Sequence record: MN850579.1
Strand: one strand, 5' to 3'
Origin: Escherichia phage mogra
Length of the DNA: 64,000 nt
A program made the position numbers and the translations under genes. Every line of letters begins with the position of its first letter. Position 1 is the stretch's first letter. Below are positions 3,368 to 63,190 of this stretch, one piece after another. The notes under the pieces are model-generated. The model was not told the DNA's origin. It did no database searches and saw only the letters and a list, made by a program, of their open reading frames with translations.

Positions 3368-3858
3368 TGATTAACAAAACATATTGGTCTAATATAGACG
3401 ATGGCAACGAAGGTATTTCGTATTATTCGGTAGATTGGACAGGATGTCCATCCTACTTAGTGAAACATATTTGCCAAGAATTTAAAATCTACCAGCCAGC
3501 AGGTATTATTGTGAACAGATACATTAATGGATATCAACCTATCGATGAAGTAATACGAACAACTCAAGCTGAGCTTGAAAAGTTTTTCAATAAGTGCCAA
3601 TGGATAACAGGATGGATTATATTTGTACCGTCTATATGGTTTTTTAGTACTAAAGTAAGTGCCTTTGCTGTACTAGATATTATCGCTATCTTATTAGCAT
3701 CTACTATCGTAAGTATTATTGGTGGTATTATTGGTGGAGGTATTGTAGGCATCATTATTAATCTTATTAAAAGTAGTTTACAAGAACATAAAGACAAGAT
3801 AAAAGCCAAGAATAATGAAGTTGAACGTTTTATTACCGAATGCAGGAATTTGAGATGA
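3367..3858 (+). CDS. membrane protein with glycine-zipper helix
   Basis: ATG 3367 overlaps upstream stop (TAATG); hydrophobic segment ...SIIGGIIGGGIVGIIINLI... Confidence 0.5.
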   Translation: MINKTYWSNIDDGNEGISYYSVDWTGCPSYLVKHICQEFKIYQPAGIIVNRYINGYQPIDEVIRTTQAELEKFFNKCQWITGWIIFVPSIWFFSTKVSAFAVLDIIAILLASTIVSIIGGIIGGGIVGIIINLIKSSLQEHKDKIKAKNNEVERFITECRNLR

Positions 3859-4540: not shown

Positions 4541-4573
4541 TAATAAATACCTCCTATAAACGTGGGAGGTATT
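4541..4573 (+). promoter_or_regulatory. RBS-sequestering hairpin with late-promoter-like box ahead of lysozyme
   Basis: 9-bp stem AATACCTCC (4546-4554) / GGAGGTATT (4565-4573) contains the SD and abuts ATG 4574; TAATAAATA 4541-4549 just upstream. Confidence 0.5.
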
Positions 4574-5341: not shown

Positions 5342-5395
5342 GTTTACTTCCTCCAAGGACTTTGATACTATACATCTATCAACTACTTGGAGGAA
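5342..5395 (+). promoter_or_regulatory. early-type promoter embedded in an inverted repeat that can sequester the denV SD
   Basis: GTTTAC 5342-5347; arm TTCCTCCAAG 5348-5357 between -35 and -10; complementary arm CTTGGAGGAA 5386-5395 carries the SD. Confidence 0.55.
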
Positions 5396-5398
5396 ATT

Positions 5399-5812
5399 AT
5401 GACTCGTATCAATTTGACACTTGTTTCTGAACTGACCGACCAACATCTTATGGCTGAGTATCGTGAATTACCACGCGTATTTGGTGCAGTCCGTAAACAT
5501 GTTCAAAACGGTAAACGTGTAAAGGATTTTAAAATCTCTCCAACATTTATCTTAGGCACAGGTCACGTAACATTCTTTTACGACAAACTCGAATTTTTAC
5601 GTTTACGACAAATCGAGCTAATCGCTGAATGCTTGAAACGTGGTTTCAAAATCAAGGACACGACAGTCCAGGATATTTCCGACATCCCTGCCGAATTTCG
5701 TAATAATTATGTCCCGTCTGAAGCGTCCATTGCGATAAGTCAAGCACGCTTAGATGAAAAAATTGCTCAACGTCCGACTTGGTACAAATACTATGGTAAA
5801 TCAATTTACTAA
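5399..5812 (+). CDS. denV: endonuclease V (pyrimidine dimer DNA glycosylase)
   Basis: [31 protein letters not shown]... matches recalled T4 endo V; ATG 5399 after GGAGG; 137 aa. Confidence 0.93.
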
Positions 5813-8872: not shown

Positions 8873-9171
8873 TGGCTCAAATCCTATCAGGCTTTGGAAC
8901 TCATTATGAAGCATCTAGACGCATAACTGAAAGCAATCCTTTTGGCCTTGTTCCGAAGCACAAGAAAATTCAAAGCCTTGATGACTTTGAGAACCGCCTA
9001 TGGGCCCTCTTTAATGAGTACAAGGCATATCTGAAAGAAGACGCTGACTATTGTCTTGAAGAAGATGAGATTGCGTATTACGAACAACGCCTTGAACAGC
9101 TCAAGAACTTCCGTCAGGTTCGTGACGAAGTATCTAAAGCAGTTAAAAAGTTAATTCCTTTCAAAGAGTAG
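8872..9171 (+). CDS. hypothetical protein
   Basis: TAATG-coupled start; 99 aa. Confidence 0.55.
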
Positions 9172-9221
9172 TTTACTTCTCCTCTAGTTGTGTTACTATA
9201 GACTTGTCAACTAGAGGAGAA
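9171..9221 (+). promoter_or_regulatory. early-type promoter embedded in a 14-bp inverted repeat that can sequester the regB SD
   Basis: GTTTAC 9171-9176; arm TTCTCCTCTAGTTG 9177-9190; TACTAT 9194-9199; perfect complement CAACTAGAGGAGAA 9208-9221 includes the SD. Confidence 0.6.
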
Positions 9222-9227
9222 ATCAAA

Positions 9228-9686
9228 ATGACTATCAATTCGGAAGTTTTTATCCGCCGTAATAAACTCCGTCGAATCTTTGAAACGGAGTTCCGCAAAA
9301 TAAATGCCGGTATAAAAGATGCTGCAAAGTCTCTTGGACTACCAGGCTTTCATATCAAGTATTCTCAACATCTCTTAGATCGTGCCATCCAGAGAGAAAT
9401 AGATGAGAATTACGTTTTTGAATTATTTCATAAAGTAAAAAATCATGTTAAAGAAGTTGCAGAATTTTTATCAATGCCGGCACGTCCGGATGTTGATGAA
9501 GATTTTGTCGAAGGTGTCGAATATCGCCCAGGCCGTTTAGAAATAACTGATGGAAATCTTTGGTTAGGACTTACAGTTTGTCGCGAAAATCCAGCATTCA
9601 AAATGAAGACTCTTCAATGCAGAATGGCTATTATTAACAGTAAACGACTACCAGGAAAAGCTTCTAAAGCAGTGATTAAAATCTAG
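9228..9686 (+). CDS. regB: endoribonuclease RegB
   Basis: MTINSEVFIRRNKLRR...HIKYSQHLLDRAIQREIDE...LQCRMAIINSKRLPGKASKAVIK matches recalled T4 RegB; ATG 9228 after GAGGAG. Confidence 0.9.
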   Translation: MTINSEVFIRRNKLRRIFETEFRKINAGIKDAAKSLGLPGFHIKYSQHLLDRAIQREIDENYVFELFHKVKNHVKEVAEFLSMPARPDVDEDFVEGVEYRPGRLEITDGNLWLGLTVCRENPAFKMKTLQCRMAIINSKRLPGKASKAVIKI

Positions 9687-12784: not shown

Positions 12785-12813
12785 AGCCCCTTCCGAAAGG
12801 TCGGGGCTTTTTG
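12785..12813 (+). terminator. intrinsic terminator
   Basis: Hairpin AGCCCC...GGGGCT followed by TTTTT. Confidence 0.6.
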
Positions 12814-12823
12814 GCATCTATCA

Positions 12824-12875
12824 GTTTACTTCTCCTCAGGTTGTGTTATAGTAAACCTTACTTACTAGAGGAGAA
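12824..12875 (+). promoter_or_regulatory. early-type promoter with SD-complementary upstream arm
   Basis: GTTTAC 12824-12829; arm TTCTCCTC 12830-12837; TATAGT 12847-12852; complement GAGGAGAA 12868-12875. Confidence 0.5.
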
Positions 12876-12879
12876 CGTT

Positions 12880-13059
12880 ATGTCACGTAAAGAAAAAATT
12901 TCTAAGTTAATGTTTTTGATTGAAGAGTACGCTAATGCGGTATCTGATTGGGAAAATGCTCATGGTTGCGAAGATGGAGACATCGACATTAACAGAGCTA
13001 TGAAAAAGATGGCCGACGCCCACACCGAATTGCAAATGTATGTTAACGAGATTATGTGA
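12880..13059 (+). CDS. hypothetical protein
   Basis: ATG 12880 after GAGGAG; track start 12811 lies inside the promoter; 59 aa. Confidence 0.5.
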   Translation: MSRKEKISKLMFLIEEYANAVSDWENAHGCEDGDIDINRAMKKMADAHTELQMYVNEIM

Positions 13060-13066
13060 GGATATT

Positions 13067-13276
13067 ATGCTTTACGATTATACTGGAAAATCTGAAGACG
13101 GTGTACTTGAACTTTTACCTGAAAGCGCTGAAGATGACGATATGGCGACGGTGATGTTTTGTAAAAATGGTCCCGGGGATAAGGGATGGATTTATCTTCG
13201 CCAAGAAAATGACCTAATTGTTTTAGACCCTAAACAAGTTGAAGAACTTTATCAACATTTAAAACACAATCGGTAG
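13067..13276 (+). CDS. hypothetical acidic protein
   Basis: ATG 13067 four nt after GAGGA; 69 aa. Confidence 0.5.
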   Translation: MLYDYTGKSEDGVLELLPESAEDDDMATVMFCKNGPGDKGWIYLRQENDLIVLDPKQVEELYQHLKHNR

Positions 13277-13312
13277 TTTACATCTTGGTAGGACTATGTT
13301 ATAGTAGTCCTA
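13276..13312 (+). promoter_or_regulatory. early-type promoter with palindromic -10 region
   Basis: GTTTAC 13276-13281; arms TAGGACTA 13289-13296 / TAGTCCTA 13305-13312; TATAGT 13300-13305. Confidence 0.55.
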
Positions 13313-13333
13313 TCAAAACGAACGGAGAACAAA

Positions 13334-17170: not shown

Positions 17171-17458
17171 ATGGATTTTATGCAAAAAATTAAAGCCGCA
17201 GTCGAACTGTATGCTCATCGTATGGTTAGTTCTACGATGCAATATAGCGAGGAGGTTCGCCAGGACTCTTCCTTGAAAGGAAAAACTAAAGCCTTAATTA
17301 CCTTAGATCGTTTGCAAAAGAATGCCATAGAGATGCTCCAGTACGACAAGGGTGTATATAAGAAAGAACAGGAAGAGAAACTTAAATCTGAAAAATTACA
17401 AAAAATCCCGAAGTCTGTTTGGTTCAGTGGAAAAAATACCGAAAAAAGTTTCTTTTAG
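17171..17458 (+). CDS. hypothetical protein
   Basis: GAGGA RBS; 95 aa. Confidence 0.5.
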   Translation: MDFMQKIKAAVELYAHRMVSSTMQYSEEVRQDSSLKGKTKALITLDRLQKNAIEMLQYDKGVYKKEQEEKLKSEKLQKIPKSVWFSGKNTEKSFF

Positions 17459-17460
17459 TT

Positions 17461-17495
17461 GTTTACAAGGTCTATGGTTATGTTATTATAGACCT
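17461..17495 (+). promoter_or_regulatory. early-type promoter with inverted repeat bracketing the -10
   Basis: GTTTAC 17461-17466; arms AGGTCTAT 17468-17475 / ATAGACCT 17488-17495; TATTAT 17484-17489. Confidence 0.5.
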
Positions 17496-17516
17496 ATCAA
17501 CTACTGGAGGTAAAAC

Positions 17517-18044
17517 ATGAACGCTAAAGATATTTTCAACCTGGTAAATTATAACGACGGTAAATTTAAATCTGAAGCACAAAGTAAGTTCTTTAATGAC
17601 ATTGCTTATGGTAACGAGATTACCGTGGACGGAGGTCAGATTTTCAAATCTCGCTGGAATTGGATTGTTATCATCGATTCAGTTGGAATTGTGGAAGTCT
17701 ACAAAAACACTAACAAAAAACGTACATTATTCTGGTCTCGTGAAACTAACGAGAAGTACAAAAAGGATAAAGCATCTCGTTTATCCAAAGTAACCCAGGA
17801 AGATATCGAGTTTATCAAGAAAGATATCGAGATGTACGAAAATTTAATCGCTGAAGACCAGGCAGTACTCGATAAGTTTGATGAAATTAAAGCTTCTCTT
17901 GAAATCCCTGACTTCATGAAAGAAACAGTAAACGAACGATACGCTCTCACTTCAGAACGTATTGCAAACTATACAAAACAGAAAGCAGAACGTATTAGTA
18001 CTCTTCGGAAATTTGAAGAACGTTTAAAGACGGTTCACGCATAA
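17517..18044 (+). CDS. hypothetical protein
   Basis: GGAGG RBS; 175 aa. Confidence 0.55.
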   Translation: MNAKDIFNLVNYNDGKFKSEAQSKFFNDIAYGNEITVDGGQIFKSRWNWIVIIDSVGIVEVYKNTNKKRTLFWSRETNEKYKKDKASRLSKVTQEDIEFIKKDIEMYENLIAEDQAVLDKFDEIKASLEIPDFMKETVNERYALTSERIANYTKQKAERISTLRKFEERLKTVHA

Positions 18045-23162: not shown

Positions 23163-23192
23163 TAAATACCCTTATCTATTTAAGGTAAGGGT
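23160..23192 (+). promoter_or_regulatory. late-promoter-like box plus hairpin in the gene 49 leader
   Basis: TAATAAATA 23160-23168 (same variant as upstream of e); stem ACCCTTA 23168-23174 / TAAGGGT 23186-23192. Confidence 0.45.
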
Positions 23193-28116: not shown

Positions 28117-28185
28117 CGATTTACAAACTCTTGAGAGCAGAGTATAATGCTCTCATTGGATAATAAAATAACCGAGGAAAATAAT

Positions 28186-48003: not shown

Positions 48004-49446
48004 GTGGTAGAAATTATTTTGTCTCATCTCGTATATGACCAGGCTTATTTTTCTAAGGTCTGGCCTTATATGGATTCTGAGTATTTTGAGCGTGGACCGG
48101 CAAAAAACGTCTTTAAAATTATAAAGAGCCACGTTAACGAATATAATGCAATGCCATCTATCAATGCATTAAAGGTGGCTTTAGATAACAGTTCTTTAAC
48201 TGAAGCCGAATATAAAGGAACTTCAGACCTAATTGAAAAATTGGCTGATACTCCTGAAGACCACGAATGGTTGGTTAAAGAAACTGAGAAATATGTCCAG
48301 CAAAAAGCGATGTATAATGCTACGTCTAAAATCATTGAGATTCAGTCTAATGCTGAACTACCTCCAGAACAACGTAACAAGAAAATGCCCGACGTAGGAG
48401 CTATTCCTGATATTATGCGTCAAGCACTTTCAATTTCGTTTGATAGTTATATTGGGCATGACTGGATGGAAGACTATGAAGCACGCTGGCTTTCTTATCT
48501 GAACAAAGCACGTAAGGTCCCGTTCAAATTAAACATTTTGAATAAAATCACCAAAGGCGGCGCAGAAACAGGTACACTAAACGTTTTAATGGCTGGTGTT
48601 AACGTCGGTAAATCTTTAGGCCTTTGTTCACTTGCTGCAGATTATCTTCAAACAGGTCATAATGTTCTTTATATTTCAATGGAAATGGCTGAAGAAGTTT
48701 GTGCTAAGCGTATAGATGCAAACATGCTTGACGTATCACTCGATGATATTGATGATGGTAACGTATCTTATGCTGAATATAAAGCCAAGATGGAAAAATG
48801 GCGTTCAAAAACAACATTAGGACGTTTAGTAGTTAAACAGTATCCTACTGGTGGAGCTAATGCTAATACATTTCGTGCATTGCTTAATGAGTTAAAACTT
48901 AAGAAGAACTTTGTGCCATCTGTAATCATGGTTGATTACTTAGGTATTTGTGGGTCTTGTCGTATCAGAGTTTACACTGAAAATAGCTACACATTAGTTA
49001 AAGCTATCGCAGAAGAACTTCGTGCATTAGCAGTAGAATCTGAAACAGTTCTATGGACTGCAGCTCAAGTAGGACGTGCAGCATGGGATGCTTCAGACAT
49101 GAACATGAGTGATATCGCAGAATCAGCAGGTTTACCAGCAACGGCAGATTTCATGTTGGCTGTAATTGAAACCGAAGAACTTGCACAAGCTGAACAACAA
49201 CTTATCAAACAAATCAAATCACGATACGGCGATAAGAATAAGTGGAATAAATTCCTGATGGGTGTACGTAAAGGCAATCAGAAATGGGTTGAGATTGAGC
49301 AAGAAGGCATGAACACACCTAACACAGTAAATGAAAACGCAGGTGCTCAGATGCGTCAGGCAGAGGTGAATCGTACGGAACGCGTAGGTAAAGCCAAAGC
49401 AACACGTGCTGACCTAGATAGCTTAGCCAATGAGTTAAAATTTTAA
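48004..49446 (+). CDS. 41: replicative DNA helicase gp41 (DnaB-like)
   Basis: GTG start; MVEIILSHLVYDQAYFSKVWPYMDSEYFE...; Walker A AGVNVGKS; 480 aa. Confidence 0.95.
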   Translation: MVEIILSHLVYDQAYFSKVWPYMDSEYFERGPAKNVFKIIKSHVNEYNAMPSINALKVALDNSSLTEAEYKGTSDLIEKLADTPEDHEWLVKETEKYVQQKAMYNATSKIIEIQSNAELPPEQRNKKMPDVGAIPDIMRQALSISFDSYIGHDWMEDYEARWLSYLNKARKVPFKLNILNKITKGGAETGTLNVLMAGVNVGKSLGLCSLAADYLQTGHNVLYISMEMAEEVCAKRIDANMLDVSLDDIDDGNVSYAEYKAKMEKWRSKTTLGRLVVKQYPTGGANANTFRALLNELKLKKNFVPSVIMVDYLGICGSCRIRVYTENSYTLVKAIAEELRALAVESETVLWTAAQVGRAAWDASDMNMSDIAESAGLPATADFMLAVIETEELAQAEQQLIKQIKSRYGDKNKWNKFLMGVRKGNQKWVEIEQEGMNTPNTVNENAGAQMRQAEVNRTERVGKAKATRADLDSLANELKF

Positions 49447-49452
49447 TAAAAA

Positions 49453-49472
49453 GGAGACTTCGGTCTCCTTTC
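49453..49472 (+). terminator. intrinsic terminator
   Basis: GGAGAC-TTCG-GTCTCC hairpin followed by TTT. Confidence 0.65.
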
Positions 49473-49534
49473 GGGGTTTACATCTTCCTCTAGGCATGAT
49501 ATGATGTACTTACACAAACCAAGAGGAAAACATT

Positions 49535-49909
49535 ATGAATATGTCTCAAGCAATTTTTACTGCAATCACCGAAAACACAACTGTTGAAGTAGTTTCTCCG
49601 CTGGCAACTTACGTTATTCTTGCTCCTAAAACTATTGTATCTCGTATGGAAAACATGGGCAAACGTATCGTACAAATTGTTGGAGCCGGAAATCAAAAAC
49701 TTGATTATCTACGAACCATCAAAGCTTATGAACATTTCCAACTCGAAAAAGGTTCTCCTATCCAGGTAGAACTCGTAAATGGTGATATCGTTCGAGCAAT
49801 GTTCCATCATTTCTATGCATTGAATGACCCATCTAAAGCGGTTCGTTTAATTGCATATGACGCAAACCAAAACGAAATCAACGCGGATATATCTAAATTA
49901 CGTTTTTAA
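49535..49909 (+). CDS. hypothetical protein
   Basis: AAGAGGAAA RBS; 124 aa. Confidence 0.55.
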   Translation: MNMSQAIFTAITENTTVEVVSPLATYVILAPKTIVSRMENMGKRIVQIVGAGNQKLDYLRTIKAYEHFQLEKGSPIQVELVNGDIVRAMFHHFYALNDPSKAVRLIAYDANQNEINADISKLRF

Positions 49910-49960
49910 GTTTACTTCTCCAGTAGTTGTGTTATTATAGACCTATCAACTACTGGAGAA
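49910..49960 (+). promoter_or_regulatory. early-type promoter embedded in a 14-bp inverted repeat that can sequester the SD
   Basis: GTTTAC 49910-49915; arm TTCTCCAGTAGTTG 49916-49929; TATTAT 49933-49938; perfect complement CAACTACTGGAGAA 49947-49960. Confidence 0.6.
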
Positions 49961-49964
49961 CAAA

Positions 49965-50282
49965 ATGAAAACCATCGATTGTAAAGCAGAATTTAAGATT
50001 TTTTATCACGGTTCAAGTAGTTCAGCTAACATCGAAAACATGCTTTGTCCTCCTGAAGAAACAGGAGTTCTGTCTGAAACTGGACGTAAGAAAAACTTGG
50101 ATCGTGTATTCTTTACTGAAGATATCGGTTTAGCAAAGATTTATGCAGGACGAGCAGCACGCTCTTATGGAGGTGAACCACGTCTCTATCGAGTAATTTC
50201 TCCGGTAGATGTAGTTCAAATGAATGATACTAAAGGCGCTACAGTTTATCACGCTGAATGGGCATTTTGCGAGGAAATATGA
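49965..50282 (+). CDS. hypothetical protein
   Basis: 105 aa. Confidence 0.55.
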   Translation: MKTIDCKAEFKIFYHGSSSSANIENMLCPPEETGVLSETGRKKNLDRVFFTEDIGLAKIYAGRAARSYGGEPRLYRVISPVDVVQMNDTKGATVYHAEWAFCEEI

Positions 50283-50467: not shown

Positions 50468-50538
50468 TTTTAAAATAACTGTTTACAAGCACCACATACT
50501 GTGTTACTATCTTTCTATCAACTACAGAGGAAATTGAA

Positions 50539-51221: not shown

Positions 51222-51256
51222 GTTTACATTATAGATGGACTATAGTATAGTAGTCC
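51222..51256 (+). promoter_or_regulatory. early-type promoter with palindromic -10 region
   Basis: GTTTAC 51222-51227; arms GGACTA 51237-51242 / TAGTCC 51251-51256; TATAGT 51246-51251. Confidence 0.5.
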
Positions 51257-55068: not shown

Positions 55069-55096
55069 AAGGAATCCTTCGGGATTCCTTTTTTTG
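55069..55096 (+). terminator. intrinsic terminator
   Basis: AAGGAATCC-TTCG-GGATTCCTT hairpin followed by TTTTTTT. Confidence 0.75.
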
Positions 55097-55162
55097 TTTC
55101 TACAGTTTACAACCACTAAAAACTGTGTTAAGATATTCTTACTTACTCAAGAGGAGAACAAT

Positions 55163-56425: not shown

Positions 56426-56586
56426 AAGAGAAATTTAAAGAGAAATTCTTACTAGAAATCAAGGAAAAAGACTTTGAGACATGGTATCGAATGGTGAAAG
56501 GGTTGACATTGCTTTTTAAAGCATCCTTATTCATGTTAGAACAACCTGGTCCTGATGGTCCTTTAGTAGGAAAGCTTAAAAAGTAG
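56422..56586 (+). CDS. hypothetical protein (54 aa)
   Basis: ATGA overlap; not in track. Confidence 0.4.
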   Translation: MKEKFKEKFLLEIKEKDFETWYRMVKGLTLLFKASLFMLEQPGPDGPLVGKLKK

Positions 56587-56641
56587 TTTACATTCCCTCC
56601 TCTCGTGTTATGATAGGCTTATCTTTAAATGGAGGTCTATC

Positions 56642-57223
56642 ATGACATGTCAATCTGAACTTCAAGAACGTGAATACCTAACAAATCTGATTGATAGCAA
56701 ATTCACCCACCAAGAACAAAACATTCTCTGGGCTTGCACCGATTCTAAGGAAGACCCGGATTTCCATTATGAATTAGACCATCTTGTTCGTAAGCATATG
56801 ACTTCTACAGTACCAGTAGAACTCTACCGTGGTGTAACTCCAGAAGAAGTAGAACGTCTTTCCCTTCTTTCTGTTGGATGCCATTGGTCTCCTGGACGAG
56901 TAACATCGTTCACAGCTGATTTCAGTACAGCTCGTCAATTCTCTGGGAGATGGGAATATCAGACGTACACTATTCTTAGTCTCAGGAATGCTCCGTTCAT
57001 TTTTGATTACTACCAAAACATGGTTAACATTGTACTCGCCGGAAAGAACCCTAAGCATGTTATGGAAGAAACGCGTGTTGACGTCCTAGATATGATTGAA
57101 TCTGAACAAGAGTACATGGTCTCAGGTATCTCTAGATTTGAGATTGTGGAAATTGAAGACTTAGAATATGACCCTTTATCTCGGTTATACAAAATCATTC
57201 ATTTGAAAATGTTGAATTTTTAG
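56642..57223 (+). CDS. Mod-family ADP-ribosyltransferase (modB position)
   Basis: R-S-E ART signature: LYRGV, FTADFSTARQF, ESEQEYMVSG; 193 aa; paralog of next gene. Confidence 0.72.
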   Translation: MTCQSELQEREYLTNLIDSKFTHQEQNILWACTDSKEDPDFHYELDHLVRKHMTSTVPVELYRGVTPEEVERLSLLSVGCHWSPGRVTSFTADFSTARQFSGRWEYQTYTILSLRNAPFIFDYYQNMVNIVLAGKNPKHVMEETRVDVLDMIESEQEYMVSGISRFEIVEIEDLEYDPLSRLYKIIHLKMLNF

Positions 57224-62610: not shown

Positions 62611-62661
62611 GTTTACTTCTCCTCCGGTTTTGATATTATAACCATATCAACCAGAGGAGAA
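62611..62661 (+). promoter_or_regulatory. early-type promoter embedded in an inverted repeat that can sequester the SD
   Basis: GTTTAC 62611-62616; arm TTCTCCTCCGGTT 62617-62629; TATTAT 62634-62639; complement AACCAGAGGAGAA 62649-62661 (one mismatch). Confidence 0.55.
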
Positions 62662-62665
62662 TAAT

Positions 62666-63190
62666 ATGTTAGTTTATCGCGTAGAACGTAGTTTTTGTAC
62701 TCAACGTGAATCATTACCAGGAATTGCTATCGAAGATGGTAAAGCCGTCAGAATTTGGGAAACCTCTTGGAATAAAGAACCTCGCTCGCCATACGGTTGG
62801 TCGGGCACCGACAACTCTGAAGAAACATGGGAGTTCCTTGATAAGCATGGAATACTCTCAGGTAACTTCTACCATCACGGCGACAACTATAATGTCCCTA
62901 ATCGTCCTACAGTAAATGAAGACAAACTCCTTGAACAAAATATCTTAAGATACCATAGAATTGAGCACACATTTGAATTGAGTGAAGATTGGGCTCAAGG
63001 GTTCTATTTTGGATTTGAAAGTGTTGACGCGGTTTATGCATGGTTTGATGACCAGGTGGATGTTGAACTCTTGAAAGCTAAAGGATACTACATCGCGGTC
63101 TATGAAGCACCTGATTTCATCCTCGGAAGTTGTCAATTAATGTTCAGACGTTCATTGGCAGAACAAGTTGATTTTATTTTGCTAAAATGA
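62666..63190 (+). CDS. hypothetical protein
   Basis: 174 aa. Confidence 0.55.
   Translation: MLVYRVERSFCTQRESLPGIAIEDGKAVRIWETSWNKEPRSPYGWSGTDNSEETWEFLDKHGILSGNFYHHGDNYNVPNRPTVNEDKLLEQNILRYHRIEHTFELSEDWAQGFYFGFESVDAVYAWFDDQVDVELLKAKGYYIAVYEAPDFILGSCQLMFRRSLAEQVDFILLK

Follow-up and report, generated by a model that had tools for sequence, protein, structure and literature searches.

Early promoters embedded in Shine-Dalgarno hairpins: a candidate translational gate in T4-family phages

Why would a phage build an early promoter into an inverted repeat whose 3' arm is the Shine-Dalgarno (SD) sequence of the gene that the promoter serves? The question is raised by the leader of regB in a 64,000-nucleotide (nt) stretch of Escherichia phage mogra (sequence record MN850579.1; hereafter the window), where one arm of a perfect 14-base-pair (bp) helix lies between the -35 and -10 hexamers and the other contains the SD. 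The original prediction, made from the letters of the window, listed five such sites and proposed that RNA reading through from upstream would pair both arms and occlude the ribosome-binding site, whereas RNA started at the embedded promoter would hold only the 3' arm and leave that site free. As far as sequence evidence goes, this interpretation is supported by folding predictions, by randomization controls and by comparison across T4-family phages. We consider it probable that the elements act as early expression cassettes, each holding a translational gate of its own.

Anatomy and predicted folding of the elements

The elements share one layout, in which the -35 hexamer GTTTAC is followed by a first arm in the spacer, an extended -10 of the form TGnTAnnnT, about 7 nt, a second arm, and then 4-6 nt before the ATG. 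The second (3') arm includes GGAG or GAGGAG at all five sites, which are made up as follows.

9171-9176, + strand: -35 hexamer GTTTAC of the regB element; its G also closes the vs.3 stop codon TAG (9169-9171)
9177-9190, + strand: regB 5' arm TTCTCCTCTAGTTG (anti-SD), inside the promoter spacer
9194-9199, + strand: regB -10 hexamer TACTAT, preceded by TGT, in the hairpin loop; predicted +1 at about 9206
9208-9221, + strand: regB 3' arm CAACTAGAGGAGAA; SD GAGGAG at 9214-9219, ATG at 9228
49910-49967, + strand: element before the gene for a 105-amino-acid phrog_2110 protein; -35 at 49910-49915, -10 at 49933-49938, predicted +1 at 49945, ATG at 49965
49916-49929 and 49947-49960, + strand: 5' arm TTCTCCAGTAGTTG and 3' arm CAACTACTGGAGAA of that element, a perfect 14-bp helix
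5342-5401, + strand: denV element; -35 at 5342-5347, -10 at 5366-5371, predicted +1 at 5378, ATG at 5399
5348-5357 and 5386-5395, + strand: denV 5' arm TTCCTCCAAG and 3' arm CTTGGAGGAA, a perfect 10-bp helix
62611-62668, + strand: element of a motB.2-like gene; -35 at 62611-62616, -10 at 62634-62639, predicted +1 at 62646, ATG at 62666
62617-62629 and 62649-62661, + strand: 5' arm TTCTCCTCCGGTT and 3' arm AACCAGAGGAGAA of that element, 13 bp with one C.A mismatch
12824-12882, + strand: element of a mobD.2a-like gene; weak 8-bp helix, 12830-12837 with 12868-12875; intrinsic terminator upstream at about 12785-12815

The arms at regB, 49910, denV and 62611 agree with the original description of perfect or near-perfect complements of 10-14 nt; 12824 falls below it, with only 8 contiguous bp (10/14 positions paired). 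The mismatch at 62611 is a recent change, because three close relatives have T in place of the mismatched C and with it a perfect helix. The two 14-bp copies, at regB and 49910, differ at two adjacent positions, and they do so in both arms together (CTCTAG/CTAGAG versus CAGTAG/CTACTG). The loops of the SD-type hairpins are long (17-23 nt) because they hold the -10.

With the start of the own-promoter RNA (+1) set at the seventh base after the -10, the 5' arm lies upstream of it, and the distance from the start to the 3' arm is 1-2 nt at four sites and 8 nt at denV; a short RNA begun there would therefore keep its SD open. On the long RNA, the predicted folds hold the SD or start codon in a stable local helix of 10-14 bp. 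The predicted read-through hairpins have energies of -18 to -21 kcal/mol, as against -15.3 kcal/mol for the known type of hairpin at gene e and -12.4 kcal/mol for that at gene 49 in the same genome. The predicted mean unpaired probability of the SD, averaged over positions -15 to -4 from the ATG, is 0.01-0.19 at the five sites in read-through RNA and 0.64-0.79 in own-promoter RNA, whereas other early promoters mostly lie near 0.5 in both RNA forms and have no such contrast. Both halves of the proposed switch, occlusion on read-through RNA and release on RNA from the embedded promoter, are thus borne out by the predicted folds.

At most of the sites the pairing exceeds what chance would give. 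RNA from the -35 to ATG+17 has a folding z of -3.3 to -4.2 at four sites (0/200 shuffles), whereas the short own-promoter leaders have z > 0 and so less structure than their shuffled counterparts. When the spacers of regB, 49910 and denV are shuffled, a helix as good as the real one arises in 0-1 of 5000 trials. Across 21 promoters, pairing of the spacer is stronger with the SD region of its own gene than with those of other genes (p = 0.002); for the six SD-type loci alone the corresponding figure is 2/720.

Two side observations concern the same leaders. In both this phage and T4, many early transcripts carry the motif (C)TATCAACTAC on or directly after their predicted +1 (window positions 5378-5388, 49945-49955, 17496-17506 and 50517-50527), and several 3' arms are partly made of it. 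The 105-amino-acid protein served by the 49910 element (gene 49965-50279) belongs to phrog_2110, has no Pfam match, is encoded just upstream of dmd, and is conserved in T4-like contigs of up to 235 kb.

Conservation and distribution

Loci with relatives of RegB were taken from IMG/VR, and T4 from AF158101. The spacer/SD helix is present in 29 of the 43 regB leaders, which contain 14 distinct 5' arms, each matched by its own 3' arm; examples of such pairs are TTTTCCTCTTGACTG/CAGTTAAGAGGAGAA in T4, TTTCTCCTCTTTATG/CATAAAGAGGAGAAA in L012, ATCTCCTTTTAGT/ACTAAAAGGAGAT in L025 and ATCCTCATTTG/CAAATGAGGAT in L035. The T4 regB helix measures 15 bp, including two sense-strand G.U pairs. At denV the spacer/SD helix occurs in half of the loci (15/30), with nine distinct arm variants (T4, TCTCCTGTAG/CTACAGGAGA). 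Several other denV lineages place the 5' arm over the -10 to the +1 (e.g. ATGTCCTCCTA/TAGGAGGACAT), a position still upstream of the start and with the SD still paired.

In a chimera test, the 5' and 3' halves of the same leader pair better than halves joined across lineages, with 0 of 100000 permutations reaching the observed value for regB and for denV each. A covariance-model alignment of 80 hits in 0.97 Mb has 83.8% of its cells paired, and 12 of its 14 pairs change on both sides; covariation is 0.348, compared with 0.126 +/- 0.010 in shuffles (0/500) and 0.02-0.06 in slid controls. The alignment figures lean towards structure because the alignment was fitted to structure and the sequences are related; the chimera test is free of the first weakness. 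When the regB leaders of ten lineages were aligned with plain MAFFT, their SD cores fell out of register, and that alignment was set aside in favour of these two tests. Taken together, the comparisons indicate that pairing is maintained by compensatory change at the same genes across the T4 family. SD helices are found in T4 at regB, nrdC.8, modB, denV, e.8 and motB.2, and in the window at the orthologues of regB, denV, motB.2, nrdC.8 and modB.

Some of the arm diversity has another look. A near-identical cassette, GTTTACATCTCCTGTAG...CTATCAACTACAGGAGAT, stands before both regB (~5935) and denV (~3440-3830) in L028, L030, L032 and L034, and because nearly the same cassette precedes two genes in one genome group, copying or conversion of cassettes between genes is suggested. 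The regB leaders of L013 and L012 (5943-6003 in each) are common from mid-spacer onward and have unrelated upstream flanks; in L013 the 5' arm has GG where TT would be needed, which breaks two pairs. This boundary has the appearance of a recombination junction within the spacer of the promoter.

How widespread are such elements within one genome? Judged by its sequence, the window is the early region of a Mosigvirus (RB69-like) phage, about 98% identical over 6 kb to relatives such as mobillu, mar005P1 and ATK47. According to annotated relatives its + strand is an early/middle gene block, running from e, denV, regB and tk through nrdC, 49, 55, 43 and 41 to modA/B, dda, dexA and motB. A scan of the window for T4-type early promoters (GTTTAC-N17-TAnnnT followed by an SD, an ATG and an open reading frame) gave about 25 on this strand, and among them are about five strong and four weak cases of the SD helix, the strong ones being regB, 49910, denV, 62611 and a modB-like gene (56610-56643). 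A covariance model built from six elements found nine matches in the window, at 49910, 9171, 62611, 12824, 26992, 17461, 5342, 49476 and 7068. The helix marks a conserved, gene-specific subset of early promoters and is not universal to them; the original description of the arrangement as systematic was an overstatement. Against the whole window, the curated covariance models of Rfam gave no match at the gathering score. Pfam and PHROGs returned only families of unknown function (including domains of unknown function, DUF) for the gated genes whose function is unknown, and no common protein function emerged.

The weaker or differently placed cases absent from the original list are the modB-like element and those at 17461 (nrdC.8-like), 26992, 49476 and 7068.

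56610-56620, + strand: 5' arm ATGATAGGCTT of the modB-like gene; overlaps the -10 and ends 1 nt before the predicted +1 (56621)
56633-56643, + strand: 3' arm AGGTCTATCAT of the modB-like gene; extends over some of the SD and over the start codon's AU
17440-17520, + strand: nrdC.8-like gene; hairpin over the -10, nested inside a longer helix
26992-27052, + strand: weaker SD-type element, arms TCCTCAATAG/CTATAGAGGA with one A.A mismatch
49476-49538, + strand: weak SD-type element of 7 bp, TTCCTCT/AGAGGAA, directly after a terminator

T4 modB (AF158101, ~13130-13190) has the same geometry as the modB-like element of the window (56586-56644). In the longer helix at the nrdC.8-like gene the SD region is paired with sequence upstream of the -35, and T4 nrdC.8 has a 12-bp spacer/SD helix. 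A variant geometry, with the 5' arm over the -10 and ending at about +1, a short loop, and the 3' arm over the SD and sometimes the AUG, is seen at window positions 56586-56644, at T4 modB and in the denV leaders of L024, L033, L035, L037, L040, L041 and L044; several helices of this kind contain sense-strand U.G pairs.

A second class of hairpin occurs at many other early promoters of the window. It is a short-loop palindrome centred on the -10 that does not include the SD, as in TAGGACTAT-GTTATA-GTAGTCCTA, present in four near-identical copies (1031-1058, 2329-2352, 13285-13316 and 51237-51256). Further members lie at 17468-17495 and 28132-28155. The 3' arm of this class contains the predicted +1. 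The class is conserved gene by gene across lineages: in two gene families the non-SD hairpin is present in every case (8/8 and 6/6). It fits the subclass 'overlapping the -10' of the published promoter-early stem-loop (PeSL) cassettes.

Genes that lack an adjacent early promoter provide a control. Among 63 such SD-preceded genes in the window, an SD helix at or above a threshold of 9 was found only at e and 49, the two T4 genes to which the original prediction had drawn its analogy. Their hairpins, at 4546-4573 for e (AATACCTCCTAT/GTGGGAGGTATT) and at 23168-23192 for 49 (ACCCTTATCT/AGGTAAGGGT), each come with a late-type promoter motif; recovered by the same scan, they served as positive controls and make the analogy a sound one. 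Since these two genes with embedded late promoters are the sole strong cases among the 63, strong SD masking occurs only where there is an embedded promoter able to relieve it.

The positions of terminators can be set beside those of the helices. Genes and promoters in the same orientation lie upstream, and at four sites nothing terminator-like intervenes. Of the unique elements with a terminator just upstream, 1 of 37 has a strong helix, versus 45 of 154 of those without one (Fisher p = 2e-4). The weakest window sites, 12824 and 49476, both come directly after terminators. A comparison within one conserved gene, 49965, points in the same direction: its arms match over only 5-6 bp in those lineages that have a terminator right against the promoter, and its 14-bp helix is confined to the Mosigvirus lineage, in which an extra gene with its own promoter (49476-49906) intervenes between terminator and promoter. 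As a side observation, intrinsic terminators abut the -35 of early promoters at 49434-49475, ~12785-12815 and 55069-55100, and the promoters that follow have at most weak SD helices.

The proposed gate and competing explanations

The cassette that we propose would work as follows. The 5' anti-SD arm would lie upstream of the cassette's own start, usually in the spacer and in some genes over the -10. RNA from an upstream promoter would carry both arms and fold into a hairpin that hides the SD from 30S subunits, and the hairpin would hide it from RegB as well, because RegB needs a single-stranded GGAG. RNA from the cassette's own sigma-70-type early promoter would start past the 5' arm, and its leader of about 20 nt would be unstructured and translatable. 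Because the embedded promoter is early, translation would be confined to the few minutes of its firing at the beginning of infection, and the gene would be silent on later read-through, middle and late RNA. Short RNAs would be translated and then cut by RegB; long RNAs would escape both translation and cleavage there. The model draws directly on the anatomy, the fold predictions, the conservation with compensatory change, the gene specificity, and the link of the helices both to embedded promoters and to a lack of terminators upstream; from these we infer where transcription starts, that read-through RNA exists and in what amount, and how translation is affected. A broader proposal is that regB, denV, motB.2, nrdC.8 and modB form a conserved, previously unlisted class of self-insulating immediate-early cassettes, translated only from own-promoter RNA, with read-through RNA untranslated and RegB-resistant at that place. 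This we put forward tentatively, with nearly as much belief as doubt.

A number of points weigh against the gate. The +1 positions follow the 7-nt rule only; we found no genome-wide T4 start-site dataset in the literature. The fold at 12824 is not significant (z = -1.05, 29/200 shuffles), and some regB and denV lineages are without a helix (L019, L042-43). The diversity of arms could stem in part from the copying of whole cassettes rather than from stepwise compensation. The terminator statistic rests on related, non-independent loci chosen around regB. Exceptions of the G.U and A.C kinds inside the helices number 2 versus 2 under strict rules, with few informative positions, so that pairing in RNA and pairing in DNA are not separable by sequence; both A.C cases are single-genome variants whose relatives are Watson-Crick, whereas the G.U cases are fixed in several genomes. 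Finally, a generic sigma-70 scan makes no calls at most of these promoters, where the T4 early consensus fits instead; because its matches were no more numerous than those in shuffled DNA and most T4-type early promoters escaped it, we drew no evidence from that scan.

Could the helix serve the RNA rather than its translation? It might chiefly hide GGAG from RegB, and perhaps from other RNases, on long transcripts, so that polycistronic RNA and its downstream genes survive and the short own-promoter RNAs are cut. RegB cuts single-stranded GG*AGRAYARAA in early SDs, and secondary structure protects (PMC3014915; PMC1702504). T4 regB is itself served by a typical early promoter (PMC3014915), and four of five helix-bearing T4 genes (regB, motB.2, nrdC.8 and modB) are cut by RegB in vivo. 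In the window, the SD and tail at 49910, GGAGAACAAAA, match the RegB/S1 consensus GGAGRAYARAA exactly, and the 62611 site matches it at 10/11 positions. The exception is denV, which is not cut in T4: its GGAG resists RegB through a missing A-rich tail and not through structure (PMC1702504), and because it carries the helix although RegB does not act on it, shielding from RegB cannot be why the helix exists in general. The hairpins of e and 49 work without RegB. Moreover, the same helix necessarily blocks 30S binding, which makes protection an added consequence of the gate rather than an alternative to it. As the main role of the helix, RNA protection seems unlikely to us.

Somewhat less likely again is that the elements are ordinary PeSL cassettes, in which the stem-loop attenuates or terminates upstream transcription and supplies homology for recombination, and in which the overlap with the SD is incidental. 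PeSLs are composite units of early promoter, stem-loop and SD, and one of their stem-loops reduced lacZ expression to the same extent as rrnB T1. Some signs of cassette exchange are present here too, in the L013 spacer junction, the cassette common to regB and denV, and the extra gene at 49535-49906. The stems, however, do not resemble terminators: no U-tract follows the 3' arm, the tails are A-rich, the loops span 17-23 nt, and the terminator scan made no call at any SD-type hairpin. The SD lies in none of the five published stem positions. The SD helix is tied to particular conserved genes across genera, other genes keep their non-SD hairpins, and SD helices occur only where a promoter is embedded.

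We think it very improbable that the inverted repeat acts in the DNA, either as a cruciform or single-strand hairpin exposing the -10 or as the site of a dimeric protein, to tune or shut off the promoter. Both hairpin classes do put the -10 in or near the loop, and the equal count of G.U and A.C exceptions is compatible with pairing in DNA. Loops of 17-23 nt are, however, unfavourable for cruciform extrusion. The arm sequences vary between promoters and lineages, with no single protein site conserved; a repressor-operator reading was rejected on the difference between promoters. An action in DNA also gives no reason why the 3' arm should be the SD, and it sits poorly with the G.U pairs fixed on the sense strand in several genomes, at T4 regB and, as U.G pairs, in denV lineages. 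The shut-off of T4 early promoters, for its part, has been described as incompletely understood in mechanism (PMC3014915), which leaves room for such an action.

Least credible of all is translational coupling, in which ribosomes ending the upstream gene would melt the 5' arm and open the SD: the upstream stop codon does lie 5-10 nt before the 5' arm at every site, but ribosomes unwind only to about +11 to +13 from the P site, so that one with the stop codon in its A site would touch at most the first one or two pairs of a 10-14-bp helix, and none in T4 regB, and at gene e, where the geometry is the same, the outcome is repression and not coupling.

The gate that we favour would matter for a reference system of phage gene timing. 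In T4, promoter shut-off and RegB explain only in part how many early proteins cease to be made while RNA continues to run across their genes; a cis-acting gate, conserved at early promoters, would be a third layer, linking start choice, translation and RegB sensitivity in one 50-nt element. It would redefine part of the catalogued PeSL stem-loops, and its portable design, a promoter with a translational insulator, would be useful for phage engineering. If the broader class exists, the gate together with RegB cleavage of short RNAs would amount to a hard-wired pulse of a few minutes, would explain the RegB resistance of many intergenic GGAG sites on middle and late RNAs, and would let any such cassette be moved without taking on expression from upstream. 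T4 itself allows a direct test, since its regB and denV have the same helices.

Relation to known systems

Sequestration of a ribosome-binding site by a hairpin that contains a promoter is established for T4 e, soc, 49 and I-TevI (PMC3014915; PMC2988022), and segB and Aeh1 mobE belong to the same type. What they share with the present elements is an SD or AUG paired with an arm upstream of the proximal promoter's start, and a logic by which long transcripts are silent and short ones translated, here predicted from sequence. They differ in timing. The embedded promoter of the e/49 type is late (TATAAATA) and the known set, as given in the accessible reviews of 2010, consists of late genes, 'they are all late genes' in the words of a companion T4 review (PMC2988022), whereas the promoters here are of the early sigma-70 type, GTTTAC...TAnnnT. 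In the known genes the gate delays translation to late times; here it would restrict translation to the first minutes. The accessible literature contains no description of an early-promoter version of the gate, although older subscription literature may already mention the helix at regB or denV. The RB69 genome paper predicted 57 early promoters and does not mention hairpins.

The RegB/S1 sites share with our 3' arms the GGAG and the A-rich tail. They are defined as a single-stranded sequence motif and not as a structure, and the work on RegB analysed RNAs around the cleavage site, in which a helix spanning the promoter was not considered.

PeSL cassettes, described in RB49/phi1, PST/T4 and nt-1/KVP40, are similar in outward form, and the resemblance drawn in the original prediction is correct as a resemblance. 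Like them, the window repeats units of early promoter, stem-loop, SD and ATG between small early genes, with strong promoters of a sigma-70-like type and a 3' SD and ATG in about 25 units on the + strand; stems lying within or overlapping the promoter and some signs of cassette exchange are common to both. The published stems take one of five places: ahead of the -35, across it, between the two boxes, across the -10, or immediately before the +1. In all of them the SD lies outside the stem as a separate 3' element. Here the 3' arm is the SD itself, and the stem runs from the spacer to the SD, enclosing the -10 and the +1. PeSL stems have been interpreted as terminators or attenuators and as recombination sites, those of PST/T4 being placed upstream of the promoter; by sequence criteria the present elements lack the G+C-rich short-loop hairpin and U run of an intrinsic terminator. 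PeSLs are associated with ORFans (genes without known relatives), whereas the strongest cases here precede the conserved genes regB and denV. We class the elements, provisionally, as a putative early-promoter form of the mechanism known from e and 49, carried on PeSL-like cassettes, present in T4 itself and conserved across the subfamily.

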